Shown here one piece after another: positions 5,146 through 26,080 of a DNA stretch of 26,080 bases. Made by a program: the position numbers and the translations under genes. The notes below the pieces were generated by a model. It ran no database searches. It saw only the letters and a program-made list of their open reading frames with translations, and had not been told where the DNA came from. Location of the stretch: positions 1 to 26,080 of the IMG/VR virus record IMGVR_UViG_3300002925_000022; one strand, written 5' to 3'. Position 1 is the stretch's first letter; the number at the start of each line of letters is the position of its first letter. This stretch comes from a virus.

Positions 5146-5508
5146 ATGAGGATTAGAACAGCAGATCTTTTGCGACTTATACAAGAGGGTGTTAGAACTG
5201 CCTTCCAGAAGAAGGAAATAGGCAAAGCAACCACAACCGTTGTCTTGGACGGGTTTGAGGTTGGACCAATTAGAGTTAGAGGGAACTATTACCCTGGTCG
5301 TCGTGGTAACAGGGAGAATCCACCAGAATATCCAGAGTTTGAGCTTCGTTCTATTTTCCTGAAGGGAAAGGAGATGAACCCCGAGGAGTTTTTGCAGATT
5401 GAGAATGAAGCGCGTGCTGCTGTAGGGGAAGATCCTCTTGGAGAAGAGGAGTTTCTCCTGAAGGTAGAAGAAGAAGTTCTGGGGACGGAACAAGTTTATG
5501 GGTTTTAG
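5146..5508 (+). CDS. Acidic hypothetical protein (120 aa) with shared N-terminal motif
   Basis: AGGGG SD and ATG start. N-terminus MRIRTADLLRLIQEGV. Its stop overlaps the convergent gene by 4 nt. Confidence 0.75.
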   Translation: MRIRTADLLRLIQEGVRTAFQKKEIGKATTTVVLDGFEVGPIRVRGNYYPGRRGNRENPPEYPEFELRSIFLKGKEMNPEEFLQIENEARAAVGEDPLGEEEFLLKVEEEVLGTEQVYGF

Positions 5509-7880
5509 AAGTCCATTCGGACTTTGAACAGGAACTTATCACCAGTTCGAGAGACAATGGGCTGAGCTAAAACAGTCCTGGCAATGATATTGAGGTTGTC
5601 GTCATGCAGGTTGATGCCTGTGATGTAAACAAACCTTTGGTCTGTCTCGTTGGCGTTTGTCGAAGCGGAGACGGGGAGATAGTTGGGATTACTTGAAGAG
5701 AGGCTTGTTAGGGGTCTCTTGAACAGGTTGTAGGTTAGGATATGCGTATTTTGTTTCCCTGAGAACTGTATCTGAAATTGGTCTTTGCCAAAGAAGTACA
5801 GATGGGGATGCTTCAAAAGGATGATACCTTCATTGTAGAAGACATTTCCCACCGAAGCCCAATCTGGATGAGACCCTGAGGTATTGGCACGGAAGATGTT
5901 TCCCTCACCATCATCCCGTAGGGTCATTTCCATTTTCCCGGACGAACCGGTTAGATTGGTATCAGTGATCACCAATGATCCAGGAAGGATCTGGAGGCCA
6001 TAGTACAGGTTGGAAACGTCAAAAAAGACAACCTGATTTGATGAATTATCACCGGTCCTTTGAAGAATGGTATATCTTCCATGTTTGGAAGGAAGATCTC
6101 CCAGGAATTCTGGGCTTACCCCATTAAGAGCCCTTGCAAGGGCTCCAGAAGGCTCTTGAACGGGCGTTTGAAACAGTGTCAAGGGGAGGTAGTTACGGAG
6201 CGTTACGAAGCCTGGATGGGTGCTTCCGTTGTCTGCAACGAACTGTTTTGCCTTCACCTTGTGCGGTGCGAGAAAGCTTTGGGTAACAGACACAGGCAAC
6301 CCTGGGGCTGAGTAATCATCGGGACCAGGGATCATGAAGGTGAAGTTTGGCAAAAAGTTGCCATTATCGTTGGGTAGAATGGTGAGGTGCCGTTTGAGGT
6401 TGCTTCCCGTGGCATAAAGATAGCCATTGAAGCTTGTCGGGACAGTAGAGTTTACTGGGATTACAGAAGCAGTGAGGTTGAACAACCGGGCATATTTCCC
6501 TGTTGCAAAGTCCCTAACGAAGTTCTCCAGATTAAGGTAATGACCGTAACCGCCAAAAGCAGCTTCGACATTAATGGGAGCTGCTGTTGTTCCGTTGATT
6601 TCAAAGAATGGCGTTGCCACCACTCCACCGTGATTTCCAACAAAAGTCCTGTAAGGTGATTCTGTGGTGTAAAATGGTGGAAGGTAAAACTTCAATCGGT
6701 CGTGCAGCAATGAACTTCCAGAGATTGGCCCGTTAGTTTGGAGGAAGCCAATCTCTTCATTGCTAAGATAACGCCCATATATTTTCAGTTCATGAACTTC
6801 GGCATTTAGACCATGATCCAAGAGATAACCGGGAGGGTGATGTCCGACGTTATTAACGAGTTGGTCTAAGCCATCTCTTGGAGATACCTGGTTGGTGAAG
6901 AAGTAAGCAACCGCTTGCCCCTCAAAGAAATTTCCAATAAAAAGGCAATTCTCGTTATGGTAATCCGTCATGCTACTTGACGGGATCACAAAGGTACCTA
7001 CAGTTTTCCCGTCTACAACGAAAGAACCAGAACCTTGGTTATAAGCCGTTGTCCCCCAGCGGATGGATACATGGTGCCACCTGTTCCTTTCCAGAGAATT
7101 ATCTTCTGAGAAGAAGACAAGGTTATAGGGATAGCTTCCAGAGTAAGCTTGAGAAGGCTTGATCTCTGCGGAATGGCTCAACTGGAGGCATAGTCGGTAG
7201 CCATTTACTTTGCCATTGATATCTCTGGAAGATCCTGACAACAAGGAGATGGCATAAGAACTGGAACGATGGAACAAAGTTCCAGCCTTGAAGTCAGCTC
7301 CTTGGTAGTCATTGGTGTACCGTGGATTGATCCAGAAGTCAAAGGTAAAAGCACCAGTTACAGCGTACTGCTTGTTCTTATCAGCATAGATCAAAGCGGT
7401 ATCTGCCGGTAGCCCCGAACTTGTAAGGAAATTCAAACTGTGATAATTTGTGAAAGCGAAATGAGCTTCAGGGTATGCACTTCGGTAATAGGGCATAAGG
7501 TTGTTCATCACAACCTTCTTCCGAAGCGTATTTGAGCTGAAATGGGCAGAAGGTTCAAACCGAATAATCTCAACTGTCTGTTGCTTTCGCAGAGACATAG
7601 ATTGGGAGTTCACATTCTTGAGATAATCCTGGAGCATCCCTGACTTGTTAGAAGCAGAGCTCTGGACAATGGCATTCCGAATCCCATCCAAGTCTTGGTC
7701 AATAAAAGAACCGGAGAATATGGATAGAGGATGCACTTCTTTCTCAAAGGGGCTTCTTCGAGCAAAGACATGGAGTGTCCCACTTACGACACCTTGAGAA
7801 CTGGAACTAAAAGTCCTTGGCGGGGTCGTTGTAAGAGTAAAGGTCTCAATGTCATCAGGGTTGATCCTCTGGATTGCCAC
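5505..7880 (-). CDS. Virion structural protein with a LamG/ConA-like domain and a C-terminal tail-collar/baseplate-attachment-like motif (791 aa)
   Basis: LamG signature FTFDFWINP...WHHVSIRW...VDG...LFIG...ELKIYGRYLS. C-terminus YITGINLHDDNLNIIARTVLAQP...FKVRMDF. Confidence 0.75.
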   Translation of the reverse strand: MAIQRINPDDIETFTLTTTPPRTFSSSSQGVVSGTLHVFARRSPFEKEVHPLSIFSGSFIDQDLDGIRNAIVQSSASNKSGMLQDYLKNVNSQSMSLRKQQTVEIIRFEPSAHFSSNTLRKKVVMNNLMPYYRSAYPEAHFAFTNYHSLNFLTSSGLPADTALIYADKNKQYAVTGAFTFDFWINPRYTNDYQGADFKAGTLFHRSSSYAISLLSGSSRDINGKVNGYRLCLQLSHSAEIKPSQAYSGSYPYNLVFFSEDNSLERNRWHHVSIRWGTTAYNQGSGSFVVDGKTVGTFVIPSSSMTDYHNENCLFIGNFFEGQAVAYFFTNQVSPRDGLDQLVNNVGHHPPGYLLDHGLNAEVHELKIYGRYLSNEEIGFLQTNGPISGSSLLHDRLKFYLPPFYTTESPYRTFVGNHGGVVATPFFEINGTTAAPINVEAAFGGYGHYLNLENFVRDFATGKYARLFNLTASVIPVNSTVPTSFNGYLYATGSNLKRHLTILPNDNGNFLPNFTFMIPGPDDYSAPGLPVSVTQSFLAPHKVKAKQFVADNGSTHPGFVTLRNYLPLTLFQTPVQEPSGALARALNGVSPEFLGDLPSKHGRYTILQRTGDNSSNQVVFFDVSNLYYGLQILPGSLVITDTNLTGSSGKMEMTLRDDGEGNIFRANTSGSHPDWASVGNVFYNEGIILLKHPHLYFFGKDQFQIQFSGKQNTHILTYNLFKRPLTSLSSSNPNYLPVSASTNANETDQRFVYITGINLHDDNLNIIARTVLAQPIVSRTGDKFLFKVRMDF

Positions 7881-7909
7881 GCTTGATCCCCTTCTGGGTC
7901 AAACCCGAA

Positions 7910-9058
7910 TCAAAAATCCAATCTGACCTTAAAGGTGATGTCTCTCTCGTCATCCTTCAGAACAGGTCTGGAGAGCTTCGCCACGGCCAGAAGGTTATCC
8001 AGGGCATCATAAAGTCCAATTCCGGTTATGAACACAAAGCTTCTCTGGGATTCTTCCTGTCCCTCATCAATCACCACAATCCGGCTGTTCGCATCCGTAT
8101 ATGTCGGATTGCTGGAGTAGTTGAACTCATCAGCAGCAGCCCGACAGAAAAACAAGGTACTATTGATATTGGTGATGTTCTGGAAGGTTATCGCCGTCTG
8201 TGTGCTTCCAGAGAACCGAGTCGTGGCAATATGATCTATAATATTATCAATTGACGCCGAGACCAAGAACTGGTTCAAAGAACCTGTGAATGGCACCTTC
8301 CCAGAAAGACTGATGCCGTCAATCACACCTGTCATATAAGTTGTGGGTGTATTTTGAGCAGAGAACACTCGACTCATATCCAGGACGGCAACCCCTCGGT
8401 CAATGAACAAAAGCCCGACCTGTTGGTTAACATTGGCCGAGTTCAAAATTGCCGATACCTGACCGCCAAAGCTAAGATCTTTGTTAATGGACGAACTAAG
8501 GTCAGTGTAAATGGCCGCATTCGTTGCCTGCGCATTCAACAGAGTTCCAGTCCGAAATAGTTGGATAGCGAAGGTCTCCCTCTTGATTTGGTCACGGGCG
8601 AAGAGCCTCTTGAAGCAAATAAATAGAGCCTCATTGATGGCATTCGTCGTTGAACCTGAGGTAAAGCTAAACTGTTCGTTGGCATTTCCCAAAAGAGATC
8701 CGGCCATCTGCCGATAAATGTCAATCTTCTCTCGCATCATCAAGGACTGCGAAGGGAAGATGTACTTGCCATTTGAGTCAATCGTAGGAGATGCCCCTGA
8801 GACAACTACCGAGTTAACATGCAGACCGACTGTCATGTCAAAAACAGGATTGGCCGTCTGAAGAGAGAAATCCTGGTCAAAAACAGTCTGGAAAAGAGAA
8901 CTGGTAACCCCTGGCCCCAAACCACCCGTCACGAATACTTGATATTTCCGTCGAGTGACAGACCCCGAAATATCCTCTTGGATAATATCAACCAACTGGT
9001 TGAGGAAAGACCGAGAGGTCTTGATGTCTTCAGCTCCAAATTCCTTAAAGGTTGCCAT
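7910..9058 (-). CDS. Putative baseplate/tail structural protein (382 aa)
   Basis: C-terminus FNYSSNPTY...FITGIGLYDALDNLLAVAKLSRP...FKVRLDF is paralogous to the adjacent gene and resembles the P2 gpH-like E-I-G-L-Y-D...L-I-A-V-A motif. Confidence 0.75.
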   Translation of the reverse strand: MATFKEFGAEDIKTSRSFLNQLVDIIQEDISGSVTRRKYQVFVTGGLGPGVTSSLFQTVFDQDFSLQTANPVFDMTVGLHVNSVVVSGASPTIDSNGKYIFPSQSLMMREKIDIYRQMAGSLLGNANEQFSFTSGSTTNAINEALFICFKRLFARDQIKRETFAIQLFRTGTLLNAQATNAAIYTDLSSSINKDLSFGGQVSAILNSANVNQQVGLLFIDRGVAVLDMSRVFSAQNTPTTYMTGVIDGISLSGKVPFTGSLNQFLVSASIDNIIDHIATTRFSGSTQTAITFQNITNINSTLFFCRAAADEFNYSSNPTYTDANSRIVVIDEGQEESQRSFVFITGIGLYDALDNLLAVAKLSRPVLKDDERDITFKVRLDF

Positions 9059-9110
9059 CGTTTAGTTATTCCTTAGGTTTTGGGTTGCTACCGAGGTATT
9101 TCCATCCTCT

Positions 9111-9117
9111 ATAAGTA
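9111..9117 (-). promoter_or_regulatory. Putative late promoter TACTTAT
   Basis: Intergenic and upstream of 7910..9058; the same 7-mer occurs at 19466-19472. Confidence 0.5.
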
Positions 9118-9959: not shown

Positions 9960-9995
9960 TGTTCACCTTGTTGCAGCCTTGCTGCTCTTTGCTAA

Positions 9996-11834
9996 TTAGA
10001 AAGGTTTCCCTGTTCTCACACCTGGAAGTGGATTTGAAACCGTAGACGTGTCGGACAAGTTCGTTGTTTTGGCCAAACTCGTTATCCTTGAATCTTGCAA
10101 GGTGATATCCACGCTTGCTTGAGCCTGAAGGTCAATGTTGATAACCTGAAGACGGTACTTCCCATTGACTCTATTCGTCTTTAGTAATCCAAGGTCGGCT
10201 CCAAGTCCATTCAACAATGTCAAGTATTCCGGGTTGAAAACCACACGTATATTTGTGTGACCCGAATCTTTCATTGTATCCACGAACGTATCAGCGTTCA
10301 AGTAGGCGTTCGGATATTGTTTGGGGGCTCCAGAAACAGAGATAAGCTTTTTGACCAGTTTATTGGTAAAACGGTTGAAAGAAGCCTGTAACTGCAAGGA
10401 GTAATTTGAGGTTAGCCCGTGGGCATCAATAGCAGCCACGGCATAGATGTAGCTAGAGTCCTTTCCGAACTCATGGTCCATGTAGAAGCCAATAAAGCTT
10501 GGAACCCTTTCCACTAGTTCGGGGAGCGGATACTCGCTCAAGGAAACTCTTGTATGAGTATCATTGAAATCCCACATTTTGATAAGTTGAAAAGGATCGG
10601 CTATGCTTTTCCGACGAAATAGCTGGATGTACTTGATGTCTTGCTGTGGATTGACAGGCAGATTCCAGGTACAGCGGAGTGCTCTTTCCCCGTAATCCCA
10701 AGCCACGTTAAAATCTGCTGGTGGTGGTGGGGGCACCATTTCCACCGTGTTTACCCTGATCTCTGGAGTGAACTTGCTTCCAACTAGAAAAGAAACCAGA
10801 AGATTCTGTTTGGACTTTACGTCCACAGCTCTAGCTTCAACCAGATACACGGCTCGAATACGGTAAAAATAAGAAGAGTTATAGCGAACCTGACCGTCAT
10901 AGGTAACAGCGGTCCTGGGATCCTCAATCACAATCTGAGGGTGAACCTCAGTTGACCCATCCGACTTTATCTCTTTCTTTTCAATGAGATAGCCAAGACT
11001 GTGAACCACCGGTGCATAGCCATTAGTGTCTGCTGGCCTGTAGCCAATGTAGGACAACACTTCAAAATCATAATCCAGAGGAGACATCAGGTTCGAGTTG
11101 GCATTTGTTATTGCCGTATCCTGGATGTGCTGGATATCCTTAAGAAATGTTTCTGCCCCGAGTTCATCAGCAAAAATTCCAGCAGAATCCTCCCTGACGG
11201 TATTTGCCACTGGAACCAAAAGACGATTATTGATCCTGGCATTTAGAACCACCTTCTCAATTCGTTCGGTGATTACCTCTACCGCCTCCTGTTGATTTGA
11301 GAAAGTCACACCTTGACGAGTCAAGTCAGAGATTACTTCCGCTAGGAATTGAGCACTTACTTGGTCGGACGTATTCTTGTTCACCAACCGAACAAGTTCG
11401 TTAGCGGACTGAAAATTGTTGAAATCTGGCAGAAGTTTTGCCAGTTGGTCCACGAAAAACTTCAGTCTTAGGTCAGCTCCAGTATCTTGAAACTGGAACG
11501 TGGCATAATCATTGCTTGTGAACGTTTCCTCGGAATGGAGTTTCTCTAGATTGGCTCGGATTGAAACACTTCCTCTGTCGAGGTTGTTATCGGCATTCAG
11601 GACAATAGGCTTCCATTGGAGTTTGACCAATCTTGGAAGCCTGCGAGTCCTGGAGACATAGGAGGCATCAAAGGTTTCAGAAGGAAGCTGCTTCTCGGAT
11701 GCTTTTGAAGAACCAAGCCCATTTTCAAATTCATCAGCAGTCCAGTAAAAATACTGGAATTCACCCGAGAAGGACTCGATTTCGGGAACGTCCAGGATAG
11801 CGGCATTCTTAGAAGGTAGTGATTCTATTCCCAT
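9996..11834 (-). CDS. Structural protein with FN3-like domains (612 aa)
   Basis: YFYRIRAVY, PPPPADFNVAW...TWNLP and YIYAVAAIDAHGLTSNYS segments. Coupled to the upstream gene through TAATG. Confidence 0.7.
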   Translation of the reverse strand: MGIESLPSKNAAILDVPEIESFSGEFQYFYWTADEFENGLGSSKASEKQLPSETFDASYVSRTRRLPRLVKLQWKPIVLNADNNLDRGSVSIRANLEKLHSEETFTSNDYATFQFQDTGADLRLKFFVDQLAKLLPDFNNFQSANELVRLVNKNTSDQVSAQFLAEVISDLTRQGVTFSNQQEAVEVITERIEKVVLNARINNRLLVPVANTVREDSAGIFADELGAETFLKDIQHIQDTAITNANSNLMSPLDYDFEVLSYIGYRPADTNGYAPVVHSLGYLIEKKEIKSDGSTEVHPQIVIEDPRTAVTYDGQVRYNSSYFYRIRAVYLVEARAVDVKSKQNLLVSFLVGSKFTPEIRVNTVEMVPPPPPADFNVAWDYGERALRCTWNLPVNPQQDIKYIQLFRRKSIADPFQLIKMWDFNDTHTRVSLSEYPLPELVERVPSFIGFYMDHEFGKDSSYIYAVAAIDAHGLTSNYSLQLQASFNRFTNKLVKKLISVSGAPKQYPNAYLNADTFVDTMKDSGHTNIRVVFNPEYLTLLNGLGADLGLLKTNRVNGKYRLQVINIDLQAQASVDITLQDSRITSLAKTTNLSDTSTVSNPLPGVRTGKPF

Positions 11835-14800
11835 TACTCCACCAGTTCAATTGTCACGAAGTAGTCCTCAAAAATCACATCCTTATTTGTCCTTGGAACC
11901 AGCTTGTAGACCCCATCTGCCAAGGCTTTCTTGTCCAACTTTTCCTGGAAGAAGCTCTTCTCGAAAAATTCTCGACCGCTTTCAGTTGCCGTGGTTTCTT
12001 TGTAGTCAATCTCAAAGTCGTCTACGTTCAGCGGAATCGTAAAAACTCGTTCAAACACCTTTGGCGAAAGAATAGAAGCCATGGCATTTTCGGGCTTGAA
12101 AGCGATATTCCCAAAGGTCAAGAGTCTTAGAACATCCTTGGTGCTCTGATCCACTTGTGGACTGAGAAGCATCTGTTTGATTGGAATGTCTGGCAGAGGA
12201 GACAAAGAAGGATTATCTCGCATGTCGTTCGTGCGCTTAGCAATAAGGTACTTTCGGACCAACTCAGAGAATTGCGGTGACAAGTCTGTTCCATTTCCAA
12301 CGGACAACCTCTGGTAAGTTTGACTTTGTTGGTTGACAAAGGTAGTCTCGGTAAACTTCATGGAAGTGAGAAATTGCATGTAAGAAGCAAATAGGTCACT
12401 CAAAACATGGTTTTCAACGATAGCCCTCCTAAGAACAGGATCGGCAATGAAACTATACCGTTCACTGTTCACCACCTCTTCCAACGTGACCACTGTTGGA
12501 CTTGAAAAATTCTGATAGTCCAACAGTTTAATTCTTTGAAGCACTCGGTCGAAGTTCTCATTTGGCCGTATTTTCAAGTTCTTGTAACCGTTTGAAAACA
12601 GCGAGAGGTCAAAAATATATTTCCTGGGCTTGAAAATAAGCTGAGGGTACTCAAGGCTTCTCTTGTAAACATTTACTGTGATAACATCAAATTCTTTGTT
12701 GCGAAGGAATGTCGTCGAGACTATGTTGTCACCGTTGATCCGTTCAACTAAGTTCTTGCTGAACCCTGCGGGGATCCCAATGGTAAGAATCCTATAGCGG
12801 AAAGCAGCATTGTTCGTCTCCCGGAAGCTATCGCTTCCAAGCAAACTTAACAAGGCCCCACGAGTATCTGCGTCCGTTGGAGACGTTGGAATGAACTGCA
12901 ACCCCTGAGTGTTTGGTGTCAGTTGACGAACGTACTCGTCTCTCTGACGAAGCATGAGTCTCACTTGAGCAATACTCAAGTTTTGCCCAATATCCTGAAT
13001 ACTTGTGGCATTCAGAGAAGATAGGCTGTCCAAGGTCTGCTGAGTGAAGTAGTTGTTTGCCAAGTCCAGAGCGCTTCTCAGCCTCTTCTTGATCACTTGC
13101 AGAATGTGCATGACGCAAGCCAAGGCAAAATCCTCCTGGAACAACTTGTGCGAGATGGAGTTGAGGCTAGCCTCAATCGCATGGGCATCCAGCAAGTTCT
13201 GAGGGTTGACAACAGGCGACACATTTCTCAGAGCCAAGGAAGCAGCGTCGGCGAACTTGGAACCGGCCGTAGCGTACACCCCAGCTAGAATGGCTTGGTT
13301 ATTAGCGATTCCTGTTTGTACTGCTCCAGGTGATATTCCCATTAGGGCTGCCGTTTTAGCAGCTTGGCCAACCACATGCTGGATTGCCACGGCGTTATGA
13401 CTTTGTGCCATCCTCTGGGTCAAGGCTGTTTTTGTGGCTGTTTTTGCCTTGCTGTTCGTCCCGGGGTCTGTTTCAATAATCGGAAGAGGCGGTTGAACTT
13501 CTGCCATCACACTCTGGATGGAGTTGTAGTTTCTGGCATTGAAGTTGGTATCCACCACCATATCGGGGAAATTCTCCCCATAGGTTGAAGCTTGAAAATC
13601 ACAGCTAATGTACCGAGAGACAATCTGGGTAAATGCCTCAAAAGCCAGAAGAACCAAGGTGGAACACGACAGACTGTTATACCGAGTCCTCCTGGCAGCA
13701 TCCATGATGCTGTTGACTTCGTTCCCCAAGATGGAATCCAGCTTGGTGAAAAAATTGACGAATTGGCTGATAAGTACAGATTGTTGTAACCCAGCCGGAA
13801 TGCCGTAGACGGTATCTACGTCGTAACCAACGACAAACAGCCCATTGGCTGGGTCCGATCTTCGATCCCTTGACTGAGCATTGGAACCATTCCCGGTAAG
13901 ACTGCGATGGTTTACCAGTTCTACAATCCGGTTCTGAATGGTTTGAACCAAGGACGTGATGTAGGAAAAAAGTTCTCGCTGGTTATACAAGTTAGGCAAT
14001 TTGAAGGCGGCCTTGAAAGGCACACCATCCAGGTTACGAATATCCCGATTTAGGTCTTCAATGATGTTTAGAACGAAGAAGGTCGTTCTAGTCGTAGTCG
14101 TTCCTGTGTCTGAAGCTATAATCCGCAGGAGAATGTACTGAAACAGTAGAGCTTTCAGTCGAGGGTCGTTGGCAGCAAGCCTAAAGGCGGCTGCGGCTGT
14201 TGCTTCGGCTATGCTCAATCCAAGTCCTTGTCTCTGGTTGTTAGCAATGAGGAAGCGAAGCCCATGTTCTACAGGTTCGAGAATGAGCTTAAATATGCTA
14301 ACTGGGCTGATAGGAGAAGGTTCATCGCTATAGTCAAAAATGGAACTGACGACAGCTGTAGCGTTGTCAATCGTCTCCACGTACTTCGAAACATAGCTTC
14401 TCAATGGTTCCAGGTTAAAACTGCTAAGGTTCTCCACATTTAGGATGGAGTCCACAAAGAACACACTGCCTGGAATGTATGTCTTCCTGGTGTTGTTGTT
14501 CGTATCGATATGTTTAGTTTCAAACGGAAGAACGGCGGAATTATCGGTATTGTTAACAACCGTAAGGCCTGCAATGGAACCAGGTCCAGTTACCGGATCA
14601 AAGATACTGTTGCCAACACCCCCAAAGATATTGTCAAATGGTGAACCGTCCGTCTTTGTTGCGTTGAACTTTTGCCGCAGGTTGTTCTGGACTGTTGAGT
14701 TGCCAAGACCCCTGGATACACGAAGTTCTTTGGAAAGCATGTTCACCAGAAGCTTGATCCGGTCATCTGGTACTTGAGGCAGTGAAGAGTTGAACCGGTT

Positions 14801-15853
14801 GAAGAAGCCTTGTTCAGCAGCATTTTGCGGCTGACTAAAAGAACGGATTGTGTCGTAGGTAAAGCTGAATCCAGCACGAGTATTATAGGACTTGTCAATT
14901 GACACTGGACTAGTAACAGCAGTTCCACCAGCTTGGCGATCTGGATCTGTCAGGTTCAAAAGATTCATAGAGTACCCTTCAGCGATACTCCTGGCATCAA
15001 AAAGGAGTTGCATTAGGATCTTGGTCCCTGAGAACTGATTGAAGACATCAGCTGGGAACATCATGAACGTCTGATAGAAGTCCCTGAGCGTCCGGTAGTT
15101 TCGTAGGTCGAAGTTGTTCGAAGGAATGCCCTTTACATCGAATCCGTTTTTTACGGTTTCAATCGTCTGGATCGTGTTCTTGTAGAAGTCAGCAGCAGCA
15201 TTGACACGCTGGAAACTGTTTGCAAAAGACGTCTGGAGGTTCTGAAGTTCATTTCTTTGGTCGGTTTGCTGAATACCTGCCATAAGCTGAAAGAAGGTTT
15301 GTTCTCGCAGGTGCCGGGCTTGGTACTGGACATCCATCAACAACCCAACCTCGTTGAGGTTCAGGGTGGTGCCGTAATACACAGGTTCGAAATCCATCAA
15401 AGAGATGATTTCAGGACGGAGCACGCTGATTCCATGGGGGGTTGCTTGTTCAAAGGCCCCATTGGAAAAATTCAGTCGAGAGAGCGAGAGCGCCTCTTCG
15501 TTTGGCCTTCTTTGATTCAACAGATCGGCCACGTTAATGCGAATGGGAATATTTCCGGCAATCGGACGAAATTGAATGGTGTTTAGAGCTTTTGGGATGA
15601 CATTCTGTACAGCCCTGGAGATGTTCCCCGTTATGACATCGTTCACTGCTATAGGTAAGCGCGGAACCGTGCCTGCTTTAATGGCAGCAGCCACGGTTGG
15701 AGGAGCAATAGCGGCAGCAATAGGAGATACAGTCCGTGGGACAGGGAAGGCTGCTGGTGCCACAAATGGAATTGGCTGAGTGGCAAGGCCCCCTAGCTGG
15801 AGAGTACCGCCACGAACACCAATGCCTGTTGTGTTGGTCGTTTTTATTGCCAT
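11834..15853 (-). CDS. Large hypothetical virion protein, mostly helical (1339 aa)
   Basis: Long ORF in the structural block, with a Pro/Ala-rich N-terminus and an internal Ala-rich segment. Confidence 0.8.
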   Translation of the reverse strand: MAIKTTNTTGIGVRGGTLQLGGLATQPIPFVAPAAFPVPRTVSPIAAAIAPPTVAAAIKAGTVPRLPIAVNDVITGNISRAVQNVIPKALNTIQFRPIAGNIPIRINVADLLNQRRPNEEALSLSRLNFSNGAFEQATPHGISVLRPEIISLMDFEPVYYGTTLNLNEVGLLMDVQYQARHLREQTFFQLMAGIQQTDQRNELQNLQTSFANSFQRVNAAADFYKNTIQTIETVKNGFDVKGIPSNNFDLRNYRTLRDFYQTFMMFPADVFNQFSGTKILMQLLFDARSIAEGYSMNLLNLTDPDRQAGGTAVTSPVSIDKSYNTRAGFSFTYDTIRSFSQPQNAAEQGFFNRFNSSLPQVPDDRIKLLVNMLSKELRVSRGLGNSTVQNNLRQKFNATKTDGSPFDNIFGGVGNSIFDPVTGPGSIAGLTVVNNTDNSAVLPFETKHIDTNNNTRKTYIPGSVFFVDSILNVENLSSFNLEPLRSYVSKYVETIDNATAVVSSIFDYSDEPSPISPVSIFKLILEPVEHGLRFLIANNQRQGLGLSIAEATAAAAFRLAANDPRLKALLFQYILLRIIASDTGTTTTRTTFFVLNIIEDLNRDIRNLDGVPFKAAFKLPNLYNQRELFSYITSLVQTIQNRIVELVNHRSLTGNGSNAQSRDRRSDPANGLFVVGYDVDTVYGIPAGLQQSVLISQFVNFFTKLDSILGNEVNSIMDAARRTRYNSLSCSTLVLLAFEAFTQIVSRYISCDFQASTYGENFPDMVVDTNFNARNYNSIQSVMAEVQPPLPIIETDPGTNSKAKTATKTALTQRMAQSHNAVAIQHVVGQAAKTAALMGISPGAVQTGIANNQAILAGVYATAGSKFADAASLALRNVSPVVNPQNLLDAHAIEASLNSISHKLFQEDFALACVMHILQVIKKRLRSALDLANNYFTQQTLDSLSSLNATSIQDIGQNLSIAQVRLMLRQRDEYVRQLTPNTQGLQFIPTSPTDADTRGALLSLLGSDSFRETNNAAFRYRILTIGIPAGFSKNLVERINGDNIVSTTFLRNKEFDVITVNVYKRSLEYPQLIFKPRKYIFDLSLFSNGYKNLKIRPNENFDRVLQRIKLLDYQNFSSPTVVTLEEVVNSERYSFIADPVLRRAIVENHVLSDLFASYMQFLTSMKFTETTFVNQQSQTYQRLSVGNGTDLSPQFSELVRKYLIAKRTNDMRDNPSLSPLPDIPIKQMLLSPQVDQSTKDVLRLLTFGNIAFKPENAMASILSPKVFERVFTIPLNVDDFEIDYKETTATESGREFFEKSFFQEKLDKKALADGVYKLVPRTNKDVIFEDYFVTIELVE

Positions 15854-15856
15854 GGG

Positions 15857-18439
15857 TTATCTTAGTTTCTTCGTTATTGCCAGTGGGCTTATTGTACTGG
15901 GACCATGAGACAGGTCATGGAACACTGGTGTCACATGATATGTAGCTGCCGTTTCCAACGCTTGAGTTGCCAAGCCCGTCAAGGGTAGATTCTTAGTTGG
16001 GTTTGCTTTGGGCACTTCAGGAAGCGAATGTGTGTCAATAAACTGAAGGCTTCTTGCATCTGTAAGGGCATGCACTTTCCCTACCACTGTCCTCATACCC
16101 ATTTCTTCTTTTGTAACCAAAAAGTGATCAATTTGCTTTGGGTTCCCCTTTAGTTCCCACTGCAACTTTACCCTGCCTTTGCCCAGCGATGAAACTGTTG
16201 CCTTCTGTACCGCTGGAACAGGAACAGCTAAAGAAATTCTGACGTGCAGAATATCTCCAACGGTTCCAAATGTGAAATCTGTGTTGGCATGATTCCTCTT
16301 AAGTGTGGTTGTGCTCACGAGGTTGCCATCTCGCAGGGTTACTGGATGTTGCCACTTAGAAGGTGCGTAAGAGTAGGTTTTGTCCGGGTTGTTCTTATTT
16401 GTTACCGTAGTAGTAAAAGTTGAAATAAGACTCTGAGCACTTCGGAAGTGGGTATTGATGGTGTACTCATAGGTGTGGCCAGCTTGTACCTTCTTTACAC
16501 CACGGTTGCGGCCAAGGGCACTATCCGAAAAGTCCTTTCCAATGAAAACCCCCATGTCCTCAACTTCACCAGTAGTCAGGTTTGTACGCTTGATTTGGTA
16601 AGCGATAAGGTTCTGGAATTGATCTCGATTCTGGATGATGTCATCCTGGTAGAACCCCAAAATACCTTGTTGTTCCATTGCCTTCTTGACTTGATCCATT
16701 TTCCCTTCAGAGATTATGGAAGAAAGAGAGAAAACAATATCAAGTTCGGTTCCTACGTTTATCGTCTTTGGGGGGGAAGCCGTGGTCGTGATGATGTTGT
16801 TGATGACAGGGTTGAACTGAATATGAGAACTGGATGATGACCAGAACTCCGTTCCATCCCGGTAAGTAAGCTTCACTCGGTATTCATAAATTCTTTGGTC
16901 TACAGGGGTGATATCAGTAACATAAAACCTGGAGTCAGAAGTTGGAAGATTCTGGATATACACCACATTCCCAATGGGTGTAGCTTCAGAAAGCTTTTCA
17001 TGCCGAGACAAATCAATACGGGAAACCCGCATAGACAAAACACCAGGTGGGATATCGTTGAGTTCGATTTGAATGGTATTGTCAACGACCTTGGTGTTCA
17101 TTGAAAGGAATAACTTCCTTTGCTGAGCTGAGGACCGAACCATGTGAACTCTTTGTGGAGGATTCACAACTGCCGAAGCAAAGTCATGAGACTTCAACTC
17201 GAATCTGTTGTAAGTCACCACTCGATAAATCACTGGTCGCATCCCAGGATTTGGATCATTGTACCACTTTGACCCATCCTGTACCCGAAGGGGTACTTTG
17301 GCAATTTGCACGAAATCTGTTTCTGTTGTTTCCGAGTGTGTATTCAAGACCTTCCGATAAATAAACACTCCCGCTCCGTTAGGGTCTATCTGTTTGAGTT
17401 CCAGTCGGTTGTACCCTGAACATTGAGTGGCAGTAACAAATGGCACTTGAATAGGCAACGTAAAGACTGAAACATTTCGAGCATGGTGAACCACCGTGGA
17501 CAGACTCTCTACTTCCACGCCGTTGATATCCTGAAGTTCAAAAAGAAGATAGAACTGGTCGCCAATTGTACTGACATCCAGATAAAGGTCTTCTTCAATG
17601 GTCACCAGGTTGGTGTTCTCCTCAACCAAGACATGAGTATAATCGTTATTCGCTAATCCAAGCTGATTAGAAGGCTTGTCCTTAGAATCCCCAAGAACAG
17701 CATTCAGGATGCCAAAGGAAGGCTTTACAGCCCCAACAGGGCTTCCAACTACAACCTCCCGGGCAATGTTCCTTGGACGTTGAATAACGCCCGCAAAAGC
17801 CTTTTCTGTGTCAACAATATGGGAGGTTCGGTTTCCTATCTGAGCAGGGTCAATCCCGTGTTTGAAAATAAGATCAAACCCGTACTCTTGCGGCGGTTGG
17901 ACTGGGACAATCTCATTTACAGTTGGCTGAAACAAAGGTGTCTGAAATGTCGGTTGAGAGATGTTCTGAACCGTCAAATCCGAAGCCTTTACAAGCTTGA
18001 AGCTTTTCTTCCGAAAAAGGTACTTCTCGGCTGTTAGTTTGGCATCGTCATAATTCTTGAAGGTCTTTTGCACCTTCGTTGGCTTCAATTCTTTGGCCTT
18101 GTCATTTGGAATTTTTGCTGTAATGTCGCTTGTAACGGTGGTGACAAATTTTTTTACGAAAGAACGGTTCATTTCCGTTCTTTCTGCTTGCCGTCTAAGG
18201 AGGTTTTTAACAATCTCCTGGGAATTAAGACGAGAGAACCCTGGAACATCTATTACATCCGGCGGTTCCAGAGAAACATGAATCTTCACCAAGAAGGCTT
18301 TTTCTCTTACAGCCCTTTGGGCATCCACATTGTACTTGATGGCATAACGATATCTCCCTTCCTTGGTGATATCTTCTAAAACAGCGAAATCACTTGGAAG
18401 AGAGATGATGCCATCTTTACGGTTAATGTTGATCCTCAT
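15857..18439 (-). CDS. Structural protein with FN3/Ig-like beta-sandwich repeats (860 aa)
   Basis: GAGGGG SD. Repeated YRVVTY, YEYRVKL, VKLQWE and YHVTPVF strand patterns. Confidence 0.7.
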   Translation of the reverse strand: MRININRKDGIISLPSDFAVLEDITKEGRYRYAIKYNVDAQRAVREKAFLVKIHVSLEPPDVIDVPGFSRLNSQEIVKNLLRRQAERTEMNRSFVKKFVTTVTSDITAKIPNDKAKELKPTKVQKTFKNYDDAKLTAEKYLFRKKSFKLVKASDLTVQNISQPTFQTPLFQPTVNEIVPVQPPQEYGFDLIFKHGIDPAQIGNRTSHIVDTEKAFAGVIQRPRNIAREVVVGSPVGAVKPSFGILNAVLGDSKDKPSNQLGLANNDYTHVLVEENTNLVTIEEDLYLDVSTIGDQFYLLFELQDINGVEVESLSTVVHHARNVSVFTLPIQVPFVTATQCSGYNRLELKQIDPNGAGVFIYRKVLNTHSETTETDFVQIAKVPLRVQDGSKWYNDPNPGMRPVIYRVVTYNRFELKSHDFASAVVNPPQRVHMVRSSAQQRKLFLSMNTKVVDNTIQIELNDIPPGVLSMRVSRIDLSRHEKLSEATPIGNVVYIQNLPTSDSRFYVTDITPVDQRIYEYRVKLTYRDGTEFWSSSSSHIQFNPVINNIITTTASPPKTINVGTELDIVFSLSSIISEGKMDQVKKAMEQQGILGFYQDDIIQNRDQFQNLIAYQIKRTNLTTGEVEDMGVFIGKDFSDSALGRNRGVKKVQAGHTYEYTINTHFRSAQSLISTFTTTVTNKNNPDKTYSYAPSKWQHPVTLRDGNLVSTTTLKRNHANTDFTFGTVGDILHVRISLAVPVPAVQKATVSSLGKGRVKLQWELKGNPKQIDHFLVTKEEMGMRTVVGKVHALTDARSLQFIDTHSLPEVPKANPTKNLPLTGLATQALETAATYHVTPVFHDLSHGPSTISPLAITKKLR

Positions 18440-18444
18440 GCAAA

Positions 18445-19461: not shown

Positions 19462-19465
19462 GCCG

Positions 19466-19472: not shown

Positions 19473-19504
19473 TCCACTTTTCCAAAGTGAATTATCAGCA
19501 GAAT

Positions 19505-20800
19505 TTACACGTCGTAGAAAGGCTGCCCTGACCGGTACTCAAAGTCATAGATGCCAGAGTCTTTTGGATTCAAAAGGGTTGGGTTGCTGGCCGTGACAGC
19601 GGCAACTGAACCGGAAACAAACCGGATGCTGATGGCAGCTTCCATTGAACCCTTTTTGCCATTGTTCTTGCCGTCGGTTGTAAAACCATCAGGATCAAAG
19701 AACTTGCTGAACTTCCTTTGTTCCATCATGTCCCGGAATTGACCGTAACGGCTGCTCCTGAAGACACAGGAGGTGTATTGTGGAAAACCATTGATGACTC
19801 CATATCTCCAGCCTCGAATGATCACAGAAGAGGCGTAGAAACCATTAATCACGCCAAAAGCGCCGTTGTGTTTACTAGATGTCACAGCGTTAAAAAACGG
19901 AACACCTTGGTGATTGTCTCCAAACCCAAAAAAAAACTTTGTTAGCTGTTTCTGGCGAGGTCTTTTTACGCCTTTGTCGTCGCCAAAGTTTCCATCAACC
20001 GCCGGTGGATAGGCATTCGAACCACTTCCAAGAAACTGTTCACTTATATTAACACTTCCTGAAACATCAATCAAAGTGTATCTAACTGGTTCGGTGGCCC
20101 CCAATCCTTCATTTAAGAGCCCATCATGCCATTTTTTAGGAATGATCACTTCAACAGTGGCAAGAGAACTGGACTGATAACCAAAGTAGCCCCCGTACGT
20201 TACAATCCCGTTTGGTAACGCAAAATTGGATTCCGTTCCGGGGCAAAGAATCTTGGAACGATAAAAAGAGGGTTCCAGGACTCGATCAATGTCTTTGTAG
20301 GTGTTCTGAAAAGGAAATGACCCAAACCAAGTCCTGTCTGCAATGTTCGTGCCTATTCCATGGTAAGAGGCTGTAACGCCATATGTGGTAAACACTGCTT
20401 TGCCAACGGCTGGGTTGTTGAAGTCTGCATCAGCATCTTGCTCGGCAATAAGAATGGGAACTTGGCCATTTTCTACAATCGCCAAAACAGGAACCCCACC
20501 ATTCAAGTAGAAGGCAGATAAGATATCAGGCAGGATTGTATCCTGGTACCTCTCTGTTACTGAGAAAAAGTGACGAAAGCGAAGACCTATTCCTAGGCTT
20601 CTATTGCGGTTTGATCCGCTGTAATCCGCAAAATCGCTGTAGTATTTAGCCAACCTGATCTCGTTGGATCCACTGCTGTGAGAAGCAATGATCTTCCGGT
20701 CGCCTGTATAAATTGAACCCGATAAGATAGAGTCCACATAAGATCCAGTGTAGAAGACATTTGGTTCCACTTCAAATTGGTCATGTGTTGTTTGGTTCAT
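19505..20800 (-). CDS. Hypothetical virion protein, SGS-rich (431 aa)
   Basis: Abuts the upstream TAG. C-terminal FRSSRYGQFRDMMEQR segment. Confidence 0.75.
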   Translation of the reverse strand: MNQTTHDQFEVEPNVFYTGSYVDSILSGSIYTGDRKIIASHSSGSNEIRLAKYYSDFADYSGSNRNRSLGIGLRFRHFFSVTERYQDTILPDILSAFYLNGGVPVLAIVENGQVPILIAEQDADADFNNPAVGKAVFTTYGVTASYHGIGTNIADRTWFGSFPFQNTYKDIDRVLEPSFYRSKILCPGTESNFALPNGIVTYGGYFGYQSSSLATVEVIIPKKWHDGLLNEGLGATEPVRYTLIDVSGSVNISEQFLGSGSNAYPPAVDGNFGDDKGVKRPRQKQLTKFFFGFGDNHQGVPFFNAVTSSKHNGAFGVINGFYASSVIIRGWRYGVINGFPQYTSCVFRSSRYGQFRDMMEQRKFSKFFDPDGFTTDGKNNGKKGSMEAAISIRFVSGSVAAVTASNPTLLNPKDSGIYDFEYRSGQPFYDV

Positions 20801-23389
20801 CTATTCCCCGATTACTTCGTGAACCGTTACAGAGGTAAGAAGTTGGTTCAGTGTATCATGATATTCCTGGTTATTCTTAATTTGAGAACCGTAAAATATG
20901 ATTTTGGAAGGCTTGGCTGCAAATGAGAGTTCTGGTCCCTTCTGGTTGTACTGAGGATTATTAAAGGCCGAATTGATTCGGTTGGCAACAGGCAACTGCC
21001 AACCGAACACCAACTGATCACCTGGCAACAGAAGATAAGGGTTAACTTTTGAATAGCGATTCAAATGTTCAATTGTTCCAGCCGGATTACCTGAGGGATT
21101 AGGGGCAATAACCAGGCTTTTTTCAACGACACTTCCTTGTTCCAAAGTGCCAAGGTAATCTCGACCGCTTGGAGTAAACAACCCAGAACGAGTACTGTTG
21201 CTGTTAATAAGCATCATGGCCGATGTCCCACCGTCATTATTTCCAATTTGAACTTGGTCCAATCCCTGATTGGACAAAGCATTTTTGACAGTTCCAGACA
21301 TGATCAAGCGCCCTGACCATTCACCATAGGCACCCAACAAAAGACTTGAACCAGCCTCCAAATTAAGTTCTCGCCGAGCACGTTCATAGGTGATTGGTAG
21401 TGCATTTGCTGAAAACCCCACAACTTGTGCATAAGTGACAAGATCCCGAACGGTATCTACTGTATTGCCGTTGTAAGTTGCAGGGATTTGCACACCTGTA
21501 ACGAGATACGCAGTAGTACCAATGTTGTTGCGATATACGATTTTTTGTAAATCATCGGAAACCAGTTGAAATGGTCTACGCTGGTTCAAGATAAAAAAGG
21601 TAGTAACCGAGTAAGTTGTATAAGAACCATAGAAGGTGGTATTATAAGTCAAAGACCCGCTCCACTCCAGGACGATCTTCTCTAGAAGAAAGGGCGTGTC
21701 GATATAATCGGACATTGAGATGCAGTTCGAGGAAGTAGCGTGGAACTTAGGGTGATAAGGAAAGCCAAAGTTACTGATTTTGGCTCCAGCTCCAAAGTCT
21801 GAATAACCAATACTACCATTATTCATACCAGTACCAAACCCAATGCACTGTTCTTCGCAAAAGGCTATAAAATTAGCAGGGTTACCAGCAGCATAAATTG
21901 CAAATTCTAGTCCCAACCCAATTCCCTCCCATTTGCGACTGTCCTTGTTCCAGTAAGCCATTGGGTAATTGTTACTGGAACCGGTATTGTTTACAATACA
22001 GAAAGAATGATCTACGGAAGGAGTTAGGTCAATCTCAATCTTGGACTTGCTCCAAAGAGGCTGGTCAAACCCTTCACCAACGTCAGAAATCTTACTCCCT
22101 GTGGCATAGAAGGGATTTGCGGTCGTACCAGTAAGCACAAACTTGGCATCAACGGCTGGGTTCCAGTCATCTCTGAACGGCTGAAAGTCTTGACCTGGGG
22201 TGAAGGTAACCAGTTTATCTCCGACGCCCTTTCGTACAACCCCCTGCACCACGATATCCGTGTTGTACTCCGGGTGCCTTTCGAAAGTGCCTGTGGCGTC
22301 CAACTGATACAAAGCAAGATTGCTCGTGTGCAATCCAGCAGGCATTGCGACGCCGAACTTGTCAGTGACTCCAAAAGGGCCACCAGAGTACAAAAGGTAC
22401 ACTTCTTGAGAAGTAGCAAACTCCTTGGCCATTACTACTTGGTCAAAGCGGCCAGTTGCTACTGAACTTCCAGTAATATAATCCGAATCGTAGAAAGCTC
22501 CAATATAGAAGCTATCTGTTGTTGGCGTGAAGCCAGTCCATCCAGTATCCAAGACCATTGTGACAGACTGAGCTACCCCATCAACATAAATGGAAACTGA
22601 GATGGCAGTAGGCGATGTAGCCTTAACTGTAACGGTTACATGGTGCCAAGTTCCAACGGAAACCACACCCGGACTTGTACTGTATACCCGGTGAGTCCCA
22701 TTGGTATTAGTAAATACTACAAATTCCAACGCGCCTGCTGCTGTGGCAAGCAGTTCAAAGGAGGCATAGTTGAGAATCCTGATTCCCTTCCAGAAAATTG
22801 GAGTCCCAGAAGCGTTAATGCTATCCAGTTTGAAGTGGGTTGCTACGGTAAACCTTGGTAATCCTCCCTGAGAAACCTCGCTATAGTTGATATTGTCGGC
22901 ATAGATTGTGTCTGAACCAGGAAGATTCCCGGAAATGTAGACGGACCAAATGTTGGGCCATGTCGAGGTAAACCCGTTGTAATACCCCGGGACATCCGGG
23001 GTCATGGCGTAGTCATTGGTTCCAAAGGATGCTGTATGAAGATGACTTCCATGGTCTGAACTGTTCCACCGACCATCAAACAGGTACTTATCTTCAAACC
23101 GCCACCAGAGAACAACGCTCCCGTTTTCATCGGTACCAGGGCCAAGGGAGTAGTTCGTATAGGTGCCAGGGGGAGCTGTTACGTCAAAGCCATGGTTGAT
23201 AGTGCCACTGGAGTAGGAGTTGAAGGAAACCGTCTTTGTGTCATCATACCGCACTTTATACCGCCCTGTCCGGTTATCAGAAACAAGACGGGAGTGTGAA
23301 GGGAAAGAACCGGTAACAGCTTCCTTCAACTGGAGTTGAACTCTTGGTGGAAGTCCCTTGATTCTGGTTTTTTTAAGGATTCTTGGCAT
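20801..23389 (-). CDS. Virion protein with a LamG/ConA-like domain (862 aa), possibly an adhesin
   Basis: VVLWWRFE...FTVATHFK...WHHVTVT...IYVDG...FYIGA...GRFDQV...EVYLLY. Confidence 0.75.
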   Translation of the reverse strand: MPRILKKTRIKGLPPRVQLQLKEAVTGSFPSHSRLVSDNRTGRYKVRYDDTKTVSFNSYSSGTINHGFDVTAPPGTYTNYSLGPGTDENGSVVLWWRFEDKYLFDGRWNSSDHGSHLHTASFGTNDYAMTPDVPGYYNGFTSTWPNIWSVYISGNLPGSDTIYADNINYSEVSQGGLPRFTVATHFKLDSINASGTPIFWKGIRILNYASFELLATAAGALEFVVFTNTNGTHRVYSTSPGVVSVGTWHHVTVTVKATSPTAISVSIYVDGVAQSVTMVLDTGWTGFTPTTDSFYIGAFYDSDYITGSSVATGRFDQVVMAKEFATSQEVYLLYSGGPFGVTDKFGVAMPAGLHTSNLALYQLDATGTFERHPEYNTDIVVQGVVRKGVGDKLVTFTPGQDFQPFRDDWNPAVDAKFVLTGTTANPFYATGSKISDVGEGFDQPLWSKSKIEIDLTPSVDHSFCIVNNTGSSNNYPMAYWNKDSRKWEGIGLGLEFAIYAAGNPANFIAFCEEQCIGFGTGMNNGSIGYSDFGAGAKISNFGFPYHPKFHATSSNCISMSDYIDTPFLLEKIVLEWSGSLTYNTTFYGSYTTYSVTTFFILNQRRPFQLVSDDLQKIVYRNNIGTTAYLVTGVQIPATYNGNTVDTVRDLVTYAQVVGFSANALPITYERARRELNLEAGSSLLLGAYGEWSGRLIMSGTVKNALSNQGLDQVQIGNNDGGTSAMMLINSNSTRSGLFTPSGRDYLGTLEQGSVVEKSLVIAPNPSGNPAGTIEHLNRYSKVNPYLLLPGDQLVFGWQLPVANRINSAFNNPQYNQKGPELSFAAKPSKIIFYGSQIKNNQEYHDTLNQLLTSVTVHEVIGE

Positions 23390-24501: not shown

Positions 24502-24517
24502 ACTGAACCTTCTAGCC

Positions 24518-26080
24518 TTAGAAACGAACCATGGCTGCAACAAACTGTTGGAAAAGGATTGTATCCTTCAAGGCATGACGATTGCTATCTCCAAGATAGA
24601 TATCGGCAAACTGGTATTCCATCTTCGGTCGTTCAAGCATGTGAGATTCAATGACAAAGTTGGTCCCGAGGAACTTTGTCTTCCTTGGGAGCAACTGAGC
24701 AATGAATTGACCGATATTCGTGTCAAACCACTTGTAGAAGTCAAAGAAACTCTTCAGGTTTATTCGATCTACAAGTCGGTTGAAGTAGATGCTACGAAGG
24801 TTATCCAAGTCTGGATAGTCTGGAGAGAAGATCAGTTCAGGATTCCCAATCACATTGTCCAGGATGTCAAGAGTAGCAAATATGTTAATGATGTCCTGGT
24901 CCAACGCATCTACGATTGAGAAATCGACAGTGAATTTTGTGTTATCCTGAGGGGCTTCTGAAGGATCCAAAGAGTACACAGGAGCCACTTGGGCGTAGGA
25001 ACTACTCAAAATATTTTCGTAATTTTGGAAGCTTCGCACTCTTACTTTGTCTGTTGTGGCCCCAACGTCAAACTTTGGTGAGAGTAGACTGTACTGGAAT
25101 AGCTGTGGCACAATCACCGAACTGGTAGCTGGGAAGAACCCTGACCAATGAAGGTTGTTCTGGGAGAAGTCAGTAAGCTGTAGGAATCCTGAAGTATTAG
25201 AGACAAGTTCCACCTGATCCGAACTTACATCCATTCGCAATCGTTCAAAAGAACCCGTCTTCTTGGTGACAAAATTGAAGTTGGTCAAAGGGTTTTCGAC
25301 CCCCAGGGACTTGAAGTTCCTGACGTGTTCCGTCCATTCAGCCAATGTTAATGCTTTAGACCAGAAACGGAAGTGGCCTGCTCTTCCATCGTAAGCCGTG
25401 GAACGATAGAAGGAAGAAATGCTACCGGTATTCAGGTAGGCAGAACCAGTGGAAATGGTTTCCTTTCCAATCGCAATAAAAGAACCTGAGGCATTCCCCG
25501 AAGAATTCTTGTTGCTCCAAATAATATCGTTGACACCAGCGACAGTCTCATTATAGAAAGCAGAAGTAACCTGTATGCTTGTGATTTCACCAAAACTCTG
25601 TTTGGCAGCTCGCAAGAAATATGAACTTGATACCGAAGAGGCAAGTTCGTCTGCTCGTTGCCTTCCAAAAGATACATGCCACACCGACCCGTCGAACACA
25701 TTGACTGGAAGGCTCATGGTCAAAACAGTGATTGATCCAGTTGTTGGAGCCGCAACGAAGGTGAGTTCTCCGTTTTGGGTGGCCAAAAGGTTTGCAATCA
25801 GGGTGCTCCCGCTAATGGCACTTCCGGTAGTTTGCATCCTGGCAAGGCTTTGCGTAGTACTCGTCAAAGAGGAAGTCGTTGGGAAACGGTAAACGCCCTC
25901 AAAAGTCCAAGAACCAGAAGTGAACAAGCCATCTCGGGGTACAGTGGAAATACCGTTGATGAACGTGGTTCCTGGTGCCACCAAAGGGAAACCGCTTTCA
26001 GTTTCCAGGCGAGAACCGGAGAGGTAAGGAGATTGCACCCTTGCACTTCCAGAAAAGTCAATGAGTGTGCTTGACTCGCT
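24518..26080 (-). CDS. C-terminal part of a large virion/baseplate protein with a LamG-like domain (5' end lies beyond the window)
   Basis: The frame stays open to the window edge (SESSTLIDFSGSARVQSP...). SGSWTFEG...WHVSFGR...HFRFWSKAL; C-terminal QLLPRKTKFLG..FVIESHMLERPK. Confidence 0.75.
   Translation of the reverse strand, partial: SESSTLIDFSGSARVQSPYLSGSRLETESGFPLVAPGTTFINGISTVPRDGLFTSGSWTFEGVYRFPTTSSLTSTTQSLARMQTTGSAISGSTLIANLLATQNGELTFVAAPTTGSITVLTMSLPVNVFDGSVWHVSFGRQRADELASSVSSSYFLRAAKQSFGEITSIQVTSAFYNETVAGVNDIIWSNKNSSGNASGSFIAIGKETISTGSAYLNTGSISSFYRSTAYDGRAGHFRFWSKALTLAEWTEHVRNFKSLGVENPLTNFNFVTKKTGSFERLRMDVSSDQVELVSNTSGFLQLTDFSQNNLHWSGFFPATSSVIVPQLFQYSLLSPKFDVGATTDKVRVRSFQNYENILSSSYAQVAPVYSLDPSEAPQDNTKFTVDFSIVDALDQDIINIFATLDILDNVIGNPELIFSPDYPDLDNLRSIYFNRLVDRINLKSFFDFYKWFDTNIGQFIAQLLPRKTKFLGTNFVIESHMLERPKMEYQFADIYLGDSNRHALKDTILFQQFVAAMVRF

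Follow-up and report, generated by a model that had tools for sequence, protein, structure and literature searches.

A candidate Ser/Thr-Gly-Ser glycosylation sequon in predicted outer tail proteins of an aquatic jumbo phage clade

The IMG/VR virus record IMGVR_UViG_3300002925_000022 consists of a single 129,319-bp contig (hereafter referred to as G000), a fragment of an uncultured jumbo phage, and its first 26 kb (positions 1 to 26,080) are the stretch analysed here, referred to as the window. We report that predicted outer tail proteins encoded on this contig carry the tripeptide Ser/Thr-Gly-Ser ([ST]GS) at six to ten times the chance frequency, and that the excess co-occurs with a pair of adjacent family 4 glycosyltransferase (GT4) genes in G000 and in three cultured phages. 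We assign a probability of roughly 55% to the reading that [ST]GS is a virion O-glycosylation sequon on the loops of outer tail proteins, written by this conserved phage-encoded GT4 pair. A broader proposition, which we advance tentatively and rate a little short of even, is that a large, globally distributed clade of aquatic jumbo phages, represented by at least 580 IMG/VR contigs and by three cultured phages, covers its outer tail proteins with a glycan that it makes itself, through a signal of the form hydrophobic-[ST]-G-S-hydrophobic (Phi-[ST]-G-S-Phi) read by the GT4 pair. This would be the first sequon-and-writer system to be defined for protein glycosylation among tailed phages, and its sugar chemistry would be swappable, because the island of donor genes varies between relatives.

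The initial annotation of the window had suggested a modification sequon from hand counts of 8, 4, 7, 5 and 9 occurrences in five proteins and none in three neighbours, and counting in the translated open reading frames (ORFs) reproduced these numbers exactly. The five proteins, all encoded on the minus strand, together contain 33 [ST]GS where 4.3 are expected from composition: 8 versus 1.0 in a 791-aa tail/fibre-like protein (5505..7880; shuffle p=0.0005), 4 versus 0.48 in a 382-aa protein (7910..9058), 7 versus 0.68 in a 431-aa protein (19505..20800), 5 versus 1.36 in an 862-aa protein (20801..23389) and 9 versus 0.79 in a 506-aa portion at the window's end (24518-26038). The nine motifs of this last portion stand, but what had been read as a 506-aa protein is really the C-terminal part of a 1145-aa protein, of which 520 residues lie within the window (24518..26080) and whose ORF runs on to contig position 27955; the full ORF (24518-27955) contains 17 [ST]GS versus 1.5 expected. 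The excess survived the composition-matched shuffles that the annotation had proposed as a check (p<=0.0005 in three of the five proteins, 0.001 in one and 0.01 in one). The neighbouring 612-, 1339- and 860-aa proteins (9996..18439, minus strand), which match no known family, do contain zero [ST]GS; their zero means no excess rather than depletion, because only about 1.5 are expected there (P(0) about 0.22). The SAS, TSS and SSS tripeptides described as abundant are raised together with TAS, but just two- to threefold. At the window motifs, the serine codons are a mixture of TCN and AGY and the flanking residues vary from site to site; thus, the motifs are dispersed, as annotated, and are neither repeat expansions nor a DNA-level word, the latter being ruled out by the codon mixture. 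The mixed codons and the excess of SGS over its own anagrams, described below, therefore argue for selection at the protein level.

Across all ORFs of G000, 102 [ST]GS were observed versus about 28-29 expected (3.6-fold), and they are concentrated in 13 proteins. An unbiased scan of whole-proteome tripeptides ranked SGS and TGS first and second of 5,394 (z = 10.0 and 9.8). Within the 13 enriched proteins, SGS occurs 45 times versus 7.5 expected and TGS 39 times versus 6.1, with smaller excesses of SGT (18 versus 6.1), SAS (14 versus 5.0) and TAS (11 versus 4.1), whereas AGS, NGS, DGS, GGS, SGG, SSG and GSS show no comparable excess; the ratios for SGG, GGS, SSG, GSS and TSG range from 0.4 to 1.3. 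In an anagram test, which is free of composition effects, SGS (54) outnumbers SSG (16) and GSS (16), a share of 0.63 against a null of 0.33 (p=2e-8), and TGS accounts for 36% of its six anagrams (p=5e-8). The extended context of the motif is Phi-[ST]-G-S-Phi. Six of the motif-enriched proteins lie in the baseplate/fibre block of the contig. Five others are tandem paralogues of about 400 aa (375-465 aa) at 55392-61772 (55.4-61.8 kb), with 3-6 [ST]GS each and no family match, and the remaining two are a 477-aa protein (103278-104711; 10 [ST]GS) and a 241-aa protein (105060-105785; 4 [ST]GS). Some motifs of the 477-aa protein fall within repeats of about 15 residues (PNT[IV]T[IV]TGS[IV]G...), so that part of the excess at this locus is repeat-derived, unlike in the window proteins.

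The candidate writers are encoded in a glycan island that lies about 10 kb past the window. GT474 (474 aa; 36847-38271) and GT393 (393 aa; 35661-36842) are GT4 glycosyltransferases with a Glycos_transf_1 domain; both are predicted to be soluble, and no NCBIfam model scores above its cut-off with either. A canonical EX7E motif is found in GT393 (E276-x7-E284) and also in the GT474 family consensus, where the first Glu and a GFG motif are invariant. In addition, the island holds several family 2 glycosyltransferase (GT2) genes, an intein-bearing UDP-sugar dehydrogenase, a methyltransferase and a radical-SAM enzyme. It is bracketed by motif-rich proteins, the five tandem paralogues lying directly beyond its far side. 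No polytopic membrane protein, flippase, priming transferase or export or lipid-carrier machinery was found in the island, and the acceptor of its pathway should therefore be cytoplasmic; a host-surface polysaccharide is a less likely target, since export machinery is lacking. DNA is also an unlikely target, at least in the Flavobacterium phage immuto, because liquid chromatography–mass spectrometry of immuto DNA found only dA, dC, dT and fdPreQ1, and no glycosylated nucleoside (PMC10516641).

The gene order GT474-GT393-...-BaseplateJ-511-1145 is conserved across the examined IMG/VR and metagenome loci. Wherever a relative is covered by enough sequence, the GT pair stands first in the baseplate operon, with which it is probably transcribed. 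Immediately downstream of Baseplate J, and in a single operon-like block with it, come the motif-enriched genes. Nine contigs lacking the GT gene in the fetched flank were searched over their whole length: seven of them carry it elsewhere, and the remaining two are fragments less than 50% complete. In all, GT474 relatives are present on at least 580 IMG/VR contigs. On the sequon reading, Phi-[ST]-G-S-Phi would mark acceptor sites on loops of the baseplate and fibre proteins that face outwards, the soluble GT4 pair would O-glycosylate these proteins in the host cytoplasm, and the remainder of the chain would be assembled and tailored by the GT2s, UDP-sugar dehydrogenase, methyltransferase and radical-SAM enzyme of the adjacent variable island.

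Several features of this locus are of separate interest. An intein containing a LAGLIDADG endonuclease domain interrupts the dehydrogenase gene (40840-43278), which is of the UDP-glucose/GDP-mannose dehydrogenase type. The only membrane-like protein of the block is a 110-aa protein (35329-35661) with one strong N-terminal transmembrane segment; its gene comes immediately downstream of GT393, ahead of the baseplate genes. In immuto, a PD-(D/E)XK nuclease gene lies immediately upstream of the GT4 pair, and in the Microcystis phage Mel-JY01 a PD-(D/E)XK nuclease gene and an IMP dehydrogenase/GMP reductase-like gene lie directly upstream of it; in G000 those two genes are located at the far end of the island (49946-51830), an arrangement suggestive of an insertion of the variable sugar genes between them and the pair.

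A comparison of genomes with and without the GT pair separated two groups. Among 50,697 phage records, a GT474 homologue was found in only seven phages, and the complete pair in three cultured ones: immuto, Mel-JY01 and the Rhodothermus phage RM378. Observed and expected [ST]GS counts are 117 and 46.6 in immuto (ratio 2.5), 140 and 55.4 in Mel-JY01 (2.5) and 51 and 19.1 in RM378 (2.7), alongside 102 and 28.2 in G000 (3.6). In the phages without the pair, the corresponding figures are 30 and 33.3 in Ma-LMM01 (0.9), 44 and 35.9 in KVP40 (1.2), 55 and 36.3 in HTVC008M (1.5), 92 and 60.7 in S-PM2 (1.5), 14 and 10.4 in TJE1 (1.3), 28 and 22.5 in S-CBS4 (1.2) and, for 22 structural proteins of T4, 8 and 12.2 (0.65). 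A direct search for GT474 in Ma-LMM01, S-PM2, HTVC008M and KVP40 found no homologue, TJE1 and S-CBS4 each encode no more than one, distantly related GT4, and T4 gave no GT474 match in the 50,697-record search. Thus, the search for co-occurring glycosyltransferases recommended in the annotation had a positive outcome: the genome encodes them, and the excess accompanies the GT4 pair and is absent in all seven phages without it. Ma-LMM01 provides a host-matched contrast, as it infects the same host genus as Mel-JY01 and has neither the pair nor the excess. The annotation had allowed for a phage or a host enzyme. The phage GT pair does co-occur with the motif, and a host enzyme is unlikely as the modifier, because the hosts span three phyla and because of the Ma-LMM01 contrast.

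Each pair-bearing genome contains several individually significant tail, fibre or neighbouring proteins, and the hydrophobic motif flanks are common to these genomes. In immuto, where gp101, gp102 and gp056 are examples of enriched tail proteins, the annotation of the enriched proteins is tail fibre or tail spike. Mel-JY01 (PP395634) encodes two collagen-like Gly-X-Y proteins (635-3052 and 9444-9986; GTSGSSGTD...), which inflate its raw S/T/G tripeptide counts. After removal of these two repeat proteins, the Mel-JY01 excess is still significant, and the anagram test and tripeptide ranks separate the same two groups of genomes. The 382-aa protein of the window has homologues in Mel-JY01, immuto and RM378, and those of Mel-JY01 and immuto, the two for which counts were made, are also motif-rich. 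The most enriched proteins of RM378 have no detectable homologues in G000 or immuto, so that in RM378 the motif is not merely riding with inherited families; a PHROGs search with these proteins returned one weak match only, to 'virion structural protein'.

The division into enriched and non-enriched proteins is kept in orthologues from 92% down to 30% identity, with family means of 5.7 observed versus 0.9 expected [ST]GS for the 511-aa protein, 12.6 versus 1.8 for the 1145-aa protein and 0.2 versus 0.4 for Baseplate J. Substitutes at orthologous motif sites follow the pattern [ST]-[GAS]-[ST]. In the 431-aa protein, S18-G19-S20, S43-G44-S45, S61-G62 and S396-G397-S398 are invariant or nearly so in 42 homologues, and in the 1145-aa family about 15 columns recurrently carry the motif among 94 representatives with at most 50% identity to the query. 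A few members of this family have 0-3 motifs and show NGQ, DGT, NGD, DGS or PGS at the same columns; that is, they retain the turn glycine and lose the hydroxyl flanks. Since these low-count homologues keep the glycine in N/D-G form, the glycine turn is structural and the Ser/Thr flanks represent an added, lineage-specific constraint; judging from the aligned sequences, the motif is not dictated by the fold. Scans of viral and metagenome contigs with the low-count members P0169, P0165 and P0183 recovered only motif-rich relatives at 31-41% identity; these three members contain 0, 1 and 2 [ST]GS, respectively, and a fourth, P0164, contains 2. We did not find the rapid site turnover that might mark a sequon, as sporadic sites particular to a lineage are about as frequent as chance predicts. 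The 1145-aa family as a whole (P0051-P0200), a widespread, two-lectin-domain, baseplate-associated protein of uncultured phages, is unannotated and very large, with 2,483 cluster representatives at a cut-off of E<=0.001, of which 467 remain at E<=1e-30.

An AlphaFold2 (AF2) model of the 1145-aa protein, built from the 94-sequence alignment, has a pLDDT of 86.7 and a pTM of 0.79. Two LamG/pentraxin-like jelly-roll domains were recognized in it (residues 128-399 and about 680-950), and its best fold match is LamG/pentraxin (Z 20.7, rmsd 3.0 over 213 residues). Fold searches returned lectin-type jelly rolls only and listed no baseplate protein, which excludes none, and the predicted fold fits a peripheral, carbohydrate-binding baseplate protein. 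In this confident model, all 17 motifs lie in loops, in line with the structural check proposed in the annotation. None of the 17 motif glycines is in a helix or strand, as compared with 21 of the 62 other glycines (Fisher p=0.004), about half of the motifs are within three residues of a strand end, and the motifs at 219, 635 and 710/715 are in clear hairpin loops. From the model we infer that the motif loops are solvent-exposed. A model of the 431-aa protein was too poor (pLDDT 42.5) and was set aside.

Several of our observations weigh against a sequon written by the GT4 pair. The pair is a clade-wide core gene set, so that its association with the motif amounts to about a single evolutionary event plus RM378, and baseplate homologues are common to three of the four positive genomes; the co-occurrence of excess and pair is thus largely clade-level. 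In GT474 of G000 the second Glu of EX7E is replaced by Ile, the non-structural proteins of the phage show no avoidance of [ST]GS, and the three large neighbouring proteins (612, 1339 and 860 aa) are without the motif. A literature search found no glycosylated virions reported for immuto, Mel-JY01 or RM378. In addition, most motif sites are conserved columns, equally compatible with a structural or assembly role. That role is the core of the main rival reading, which we regard as rather unlikely: the motif would be a clade-specific structural or assembly idiom, such as a favoured hairpin or strand-cap turn or a chaperone contact, never covalently modified, with the GT pair a mere clade marker. 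The loop positions in the model, half of them close to strand ends, and the hydrophobic flanks expected at such ends fit this idea, as do the conserved and in several cases nearly invariant sites, and since every clade contig has both motif and pair, co-occurrence cannot separate the two readings. By contrast, homologues of the same fold use NG/DG turns at the same columns, and these classic turn dipeptides are not enriched in the motif proteins. The fibre and baseplate proteins of T4 contain fewer [ST]GS than expected, and this result, together with the NG/DG homologues, ruled out a generic beta-turn habit of fibre proteins. Moreover, the excess extends to many unrelated proteins, including those of RM378 that lack G000 homologues, and the need for a hydroxyl residue at both position 1 and position 3, strict in that AGS and GGS are unenriched, is not easily explained by backbone geometry alone.

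The sequence itself leaves the identity of a modification unconstrained, and the motif may mark a different modification or interaction (phosphorylation, or a target of another or a host enzyme), with the island serving remodelling of the host surface, a soluble glycoconjugate or DNA. We consider this improbable. The phage does encode other possible modifying enzymes, for example an R2K-clade ATP-grasp enzyme, but no protein kinase was detected among the ten ORFs scanned at 96-117 kb, and a host enzyme would have to act in hosts as different as Bacteroidota, Cyanobacteria and Rhodothermus while leaving Ma-LMM01 without an excess. The sugar-free DNA of immuto and the lack of export or lipid-carrier machinery in the island speak against the proposed alternative targets; the position of the GT pair, first in the baseplate operon, weighs against this reading too. 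A statistical or compositional artefact of S/G/T-rich loops or low-complexity runs is far less probable still. The S, T and G content of the enriched proteins does exceed that of their neighbours, and the collagen-like proteins of Mel-JY01 inflate raw counts; however, local S/G/T-rich composition was rejected as an explanation by the per-protein shuffles, by the anagram test and by the lack of a comparable excess of SGG, GGS, SSG, GSS and TSG next to the top ranks of SGS and TGS, and Mel-JY01 remains significant without its repeat proteins.

Virion glycosylation itself is already known in mycobacteriophages; the sequon and its writer pair would be the new part. In Che8 and related F1-cluster mycobacteriophages, virions are glycosylated by phage-encoded glycosyltransferases, with capsid proteins as the reported targets (Freeman et al. 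2023, Cell Host Microbe 31:1216, via PMC11256854). The candidate system resembles the Che8 type in that soluble glycosyltransferases encoded by the phage would act in the host cytoplasm on virion proteins of the same phage and produce a glycan coat. It differs in its candidate targets, which are baseplate and fibre proteins whose internal loops carry scattered copies of a short, ordered tripeptide, and in its enzymes, a distinct GT4 pair linked to the baseplate operon of jumbo phages that infect aquatic Gram-negative bacteria and cyanobacteria. The targets of the mycobacteriophage enzymes are said to be capsid and tail-tube subunits with Ser/Thr-rich C-terminal tails. Furthermore, Che8-type glycosylation has been demonstrated; here the Ser/Thr modification is inferred, as are the acceptor residue, the priming glycosyltransferase and the purpose of the coat (shielding, stability or adhesion).

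Among bacterial systems, soluble cytoplasmic transferases such as TibC, acting on TibA, and Aah, acting on AIDA-I, hyper-glycosylate many serines on the turns of a beta-rich surface protein. These autotransporter heptosyltransferases belong to a GT9-like family, recognize a structural repeat and are not phage-encoded, in contrast to the GT4 proteins and tripeptide considered here. The GtfA/GtfB O-GlcNAc transferase complex, which modifies streptococcal serine-rich-repeat adhesins (PDB 5e9t/5e9u; PMC5207161), is similar in comprising two adjacent cytoplasmic GT4-type (GT-B) proteins that act on Ser in S-x-S with a small middle residue, the chain being extended by later glycosyltransferases. However, the match of GT393 to 5e9t is insignificant (E=0.96), neither GT4 protein has a DUF1975 domain or an NCBIfam GtfA/GtfB match, Pfam assigns both only to the generic Glycos_transf_1, and the GtfA/GtfB targets are long disordered SxSx repeats, whereas the candidate targets here are folded loops. 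The general O-glycosylation system of Bacteroidota, the phylum that includes the host of immuto, also uses a three-residue sequon on many proteins, D-[ST]-[ALIVMT] (PMC12871550). This sequon is different from [ST]GS, and it is modified en bloc in the periplasm from a lipid-linked donor by host enzymes, whereas the phage motif also occurs in cyanobacterial and Rhodothermus phages. The annotation had known of no described SGS sequon system, and our literature search likewise found no publication describing an SGS/TGS sequon.

Besides Baseplate J, G000 carries genes for a split-intein DnaE, a primase-polymerase and PhoH; no head genes were seen on its 129,319 bp, and related contigs reach up to 460 kb. 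An R2K-clade ATP-grasp enzyme (PF18299, E=3e-37) is encoded at 106427-107194; such enzymes are able to attach amino acids to peptides or proteins. Laminin_G_3 (PF13385), a ConA-like lectin domain, was the sole Pfam family matched by the large window proteins, above the gathering score in the 791-aa protein (residues 173-319; 34.4 bits), the 862-aa protein (residues 179-330; 44.5 bits) and the 1145-aa protein (55.3 bits). PHROGs returned zero matches for the ten large window proteins, tblastn searches with two of the large window proteins against the 50,697 phage records gave no match, and the ESM Atlas provided no usable match for the neighbouring 1339-aa protein.

To our knowledge, virion glycosylation has so far been demonstrated only in some actinophages and giant viruses. 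If [ST]GS is a true sequon, virion glycosylation would be widespread in abundant aquatic jumbo phages, and the glycan coat of a phage could be read from its genome, including which proteins and loops are modified and at what density. Such a coat would matter for how phages adsorb, how stable they are and how they evade proteases and receptor decoys, and glyco-engineering could make good use of a sequon this short and portable, served by a soluble writer of two enzymes. The three cultured phages that carry the pair make the hypothesis directly testable.

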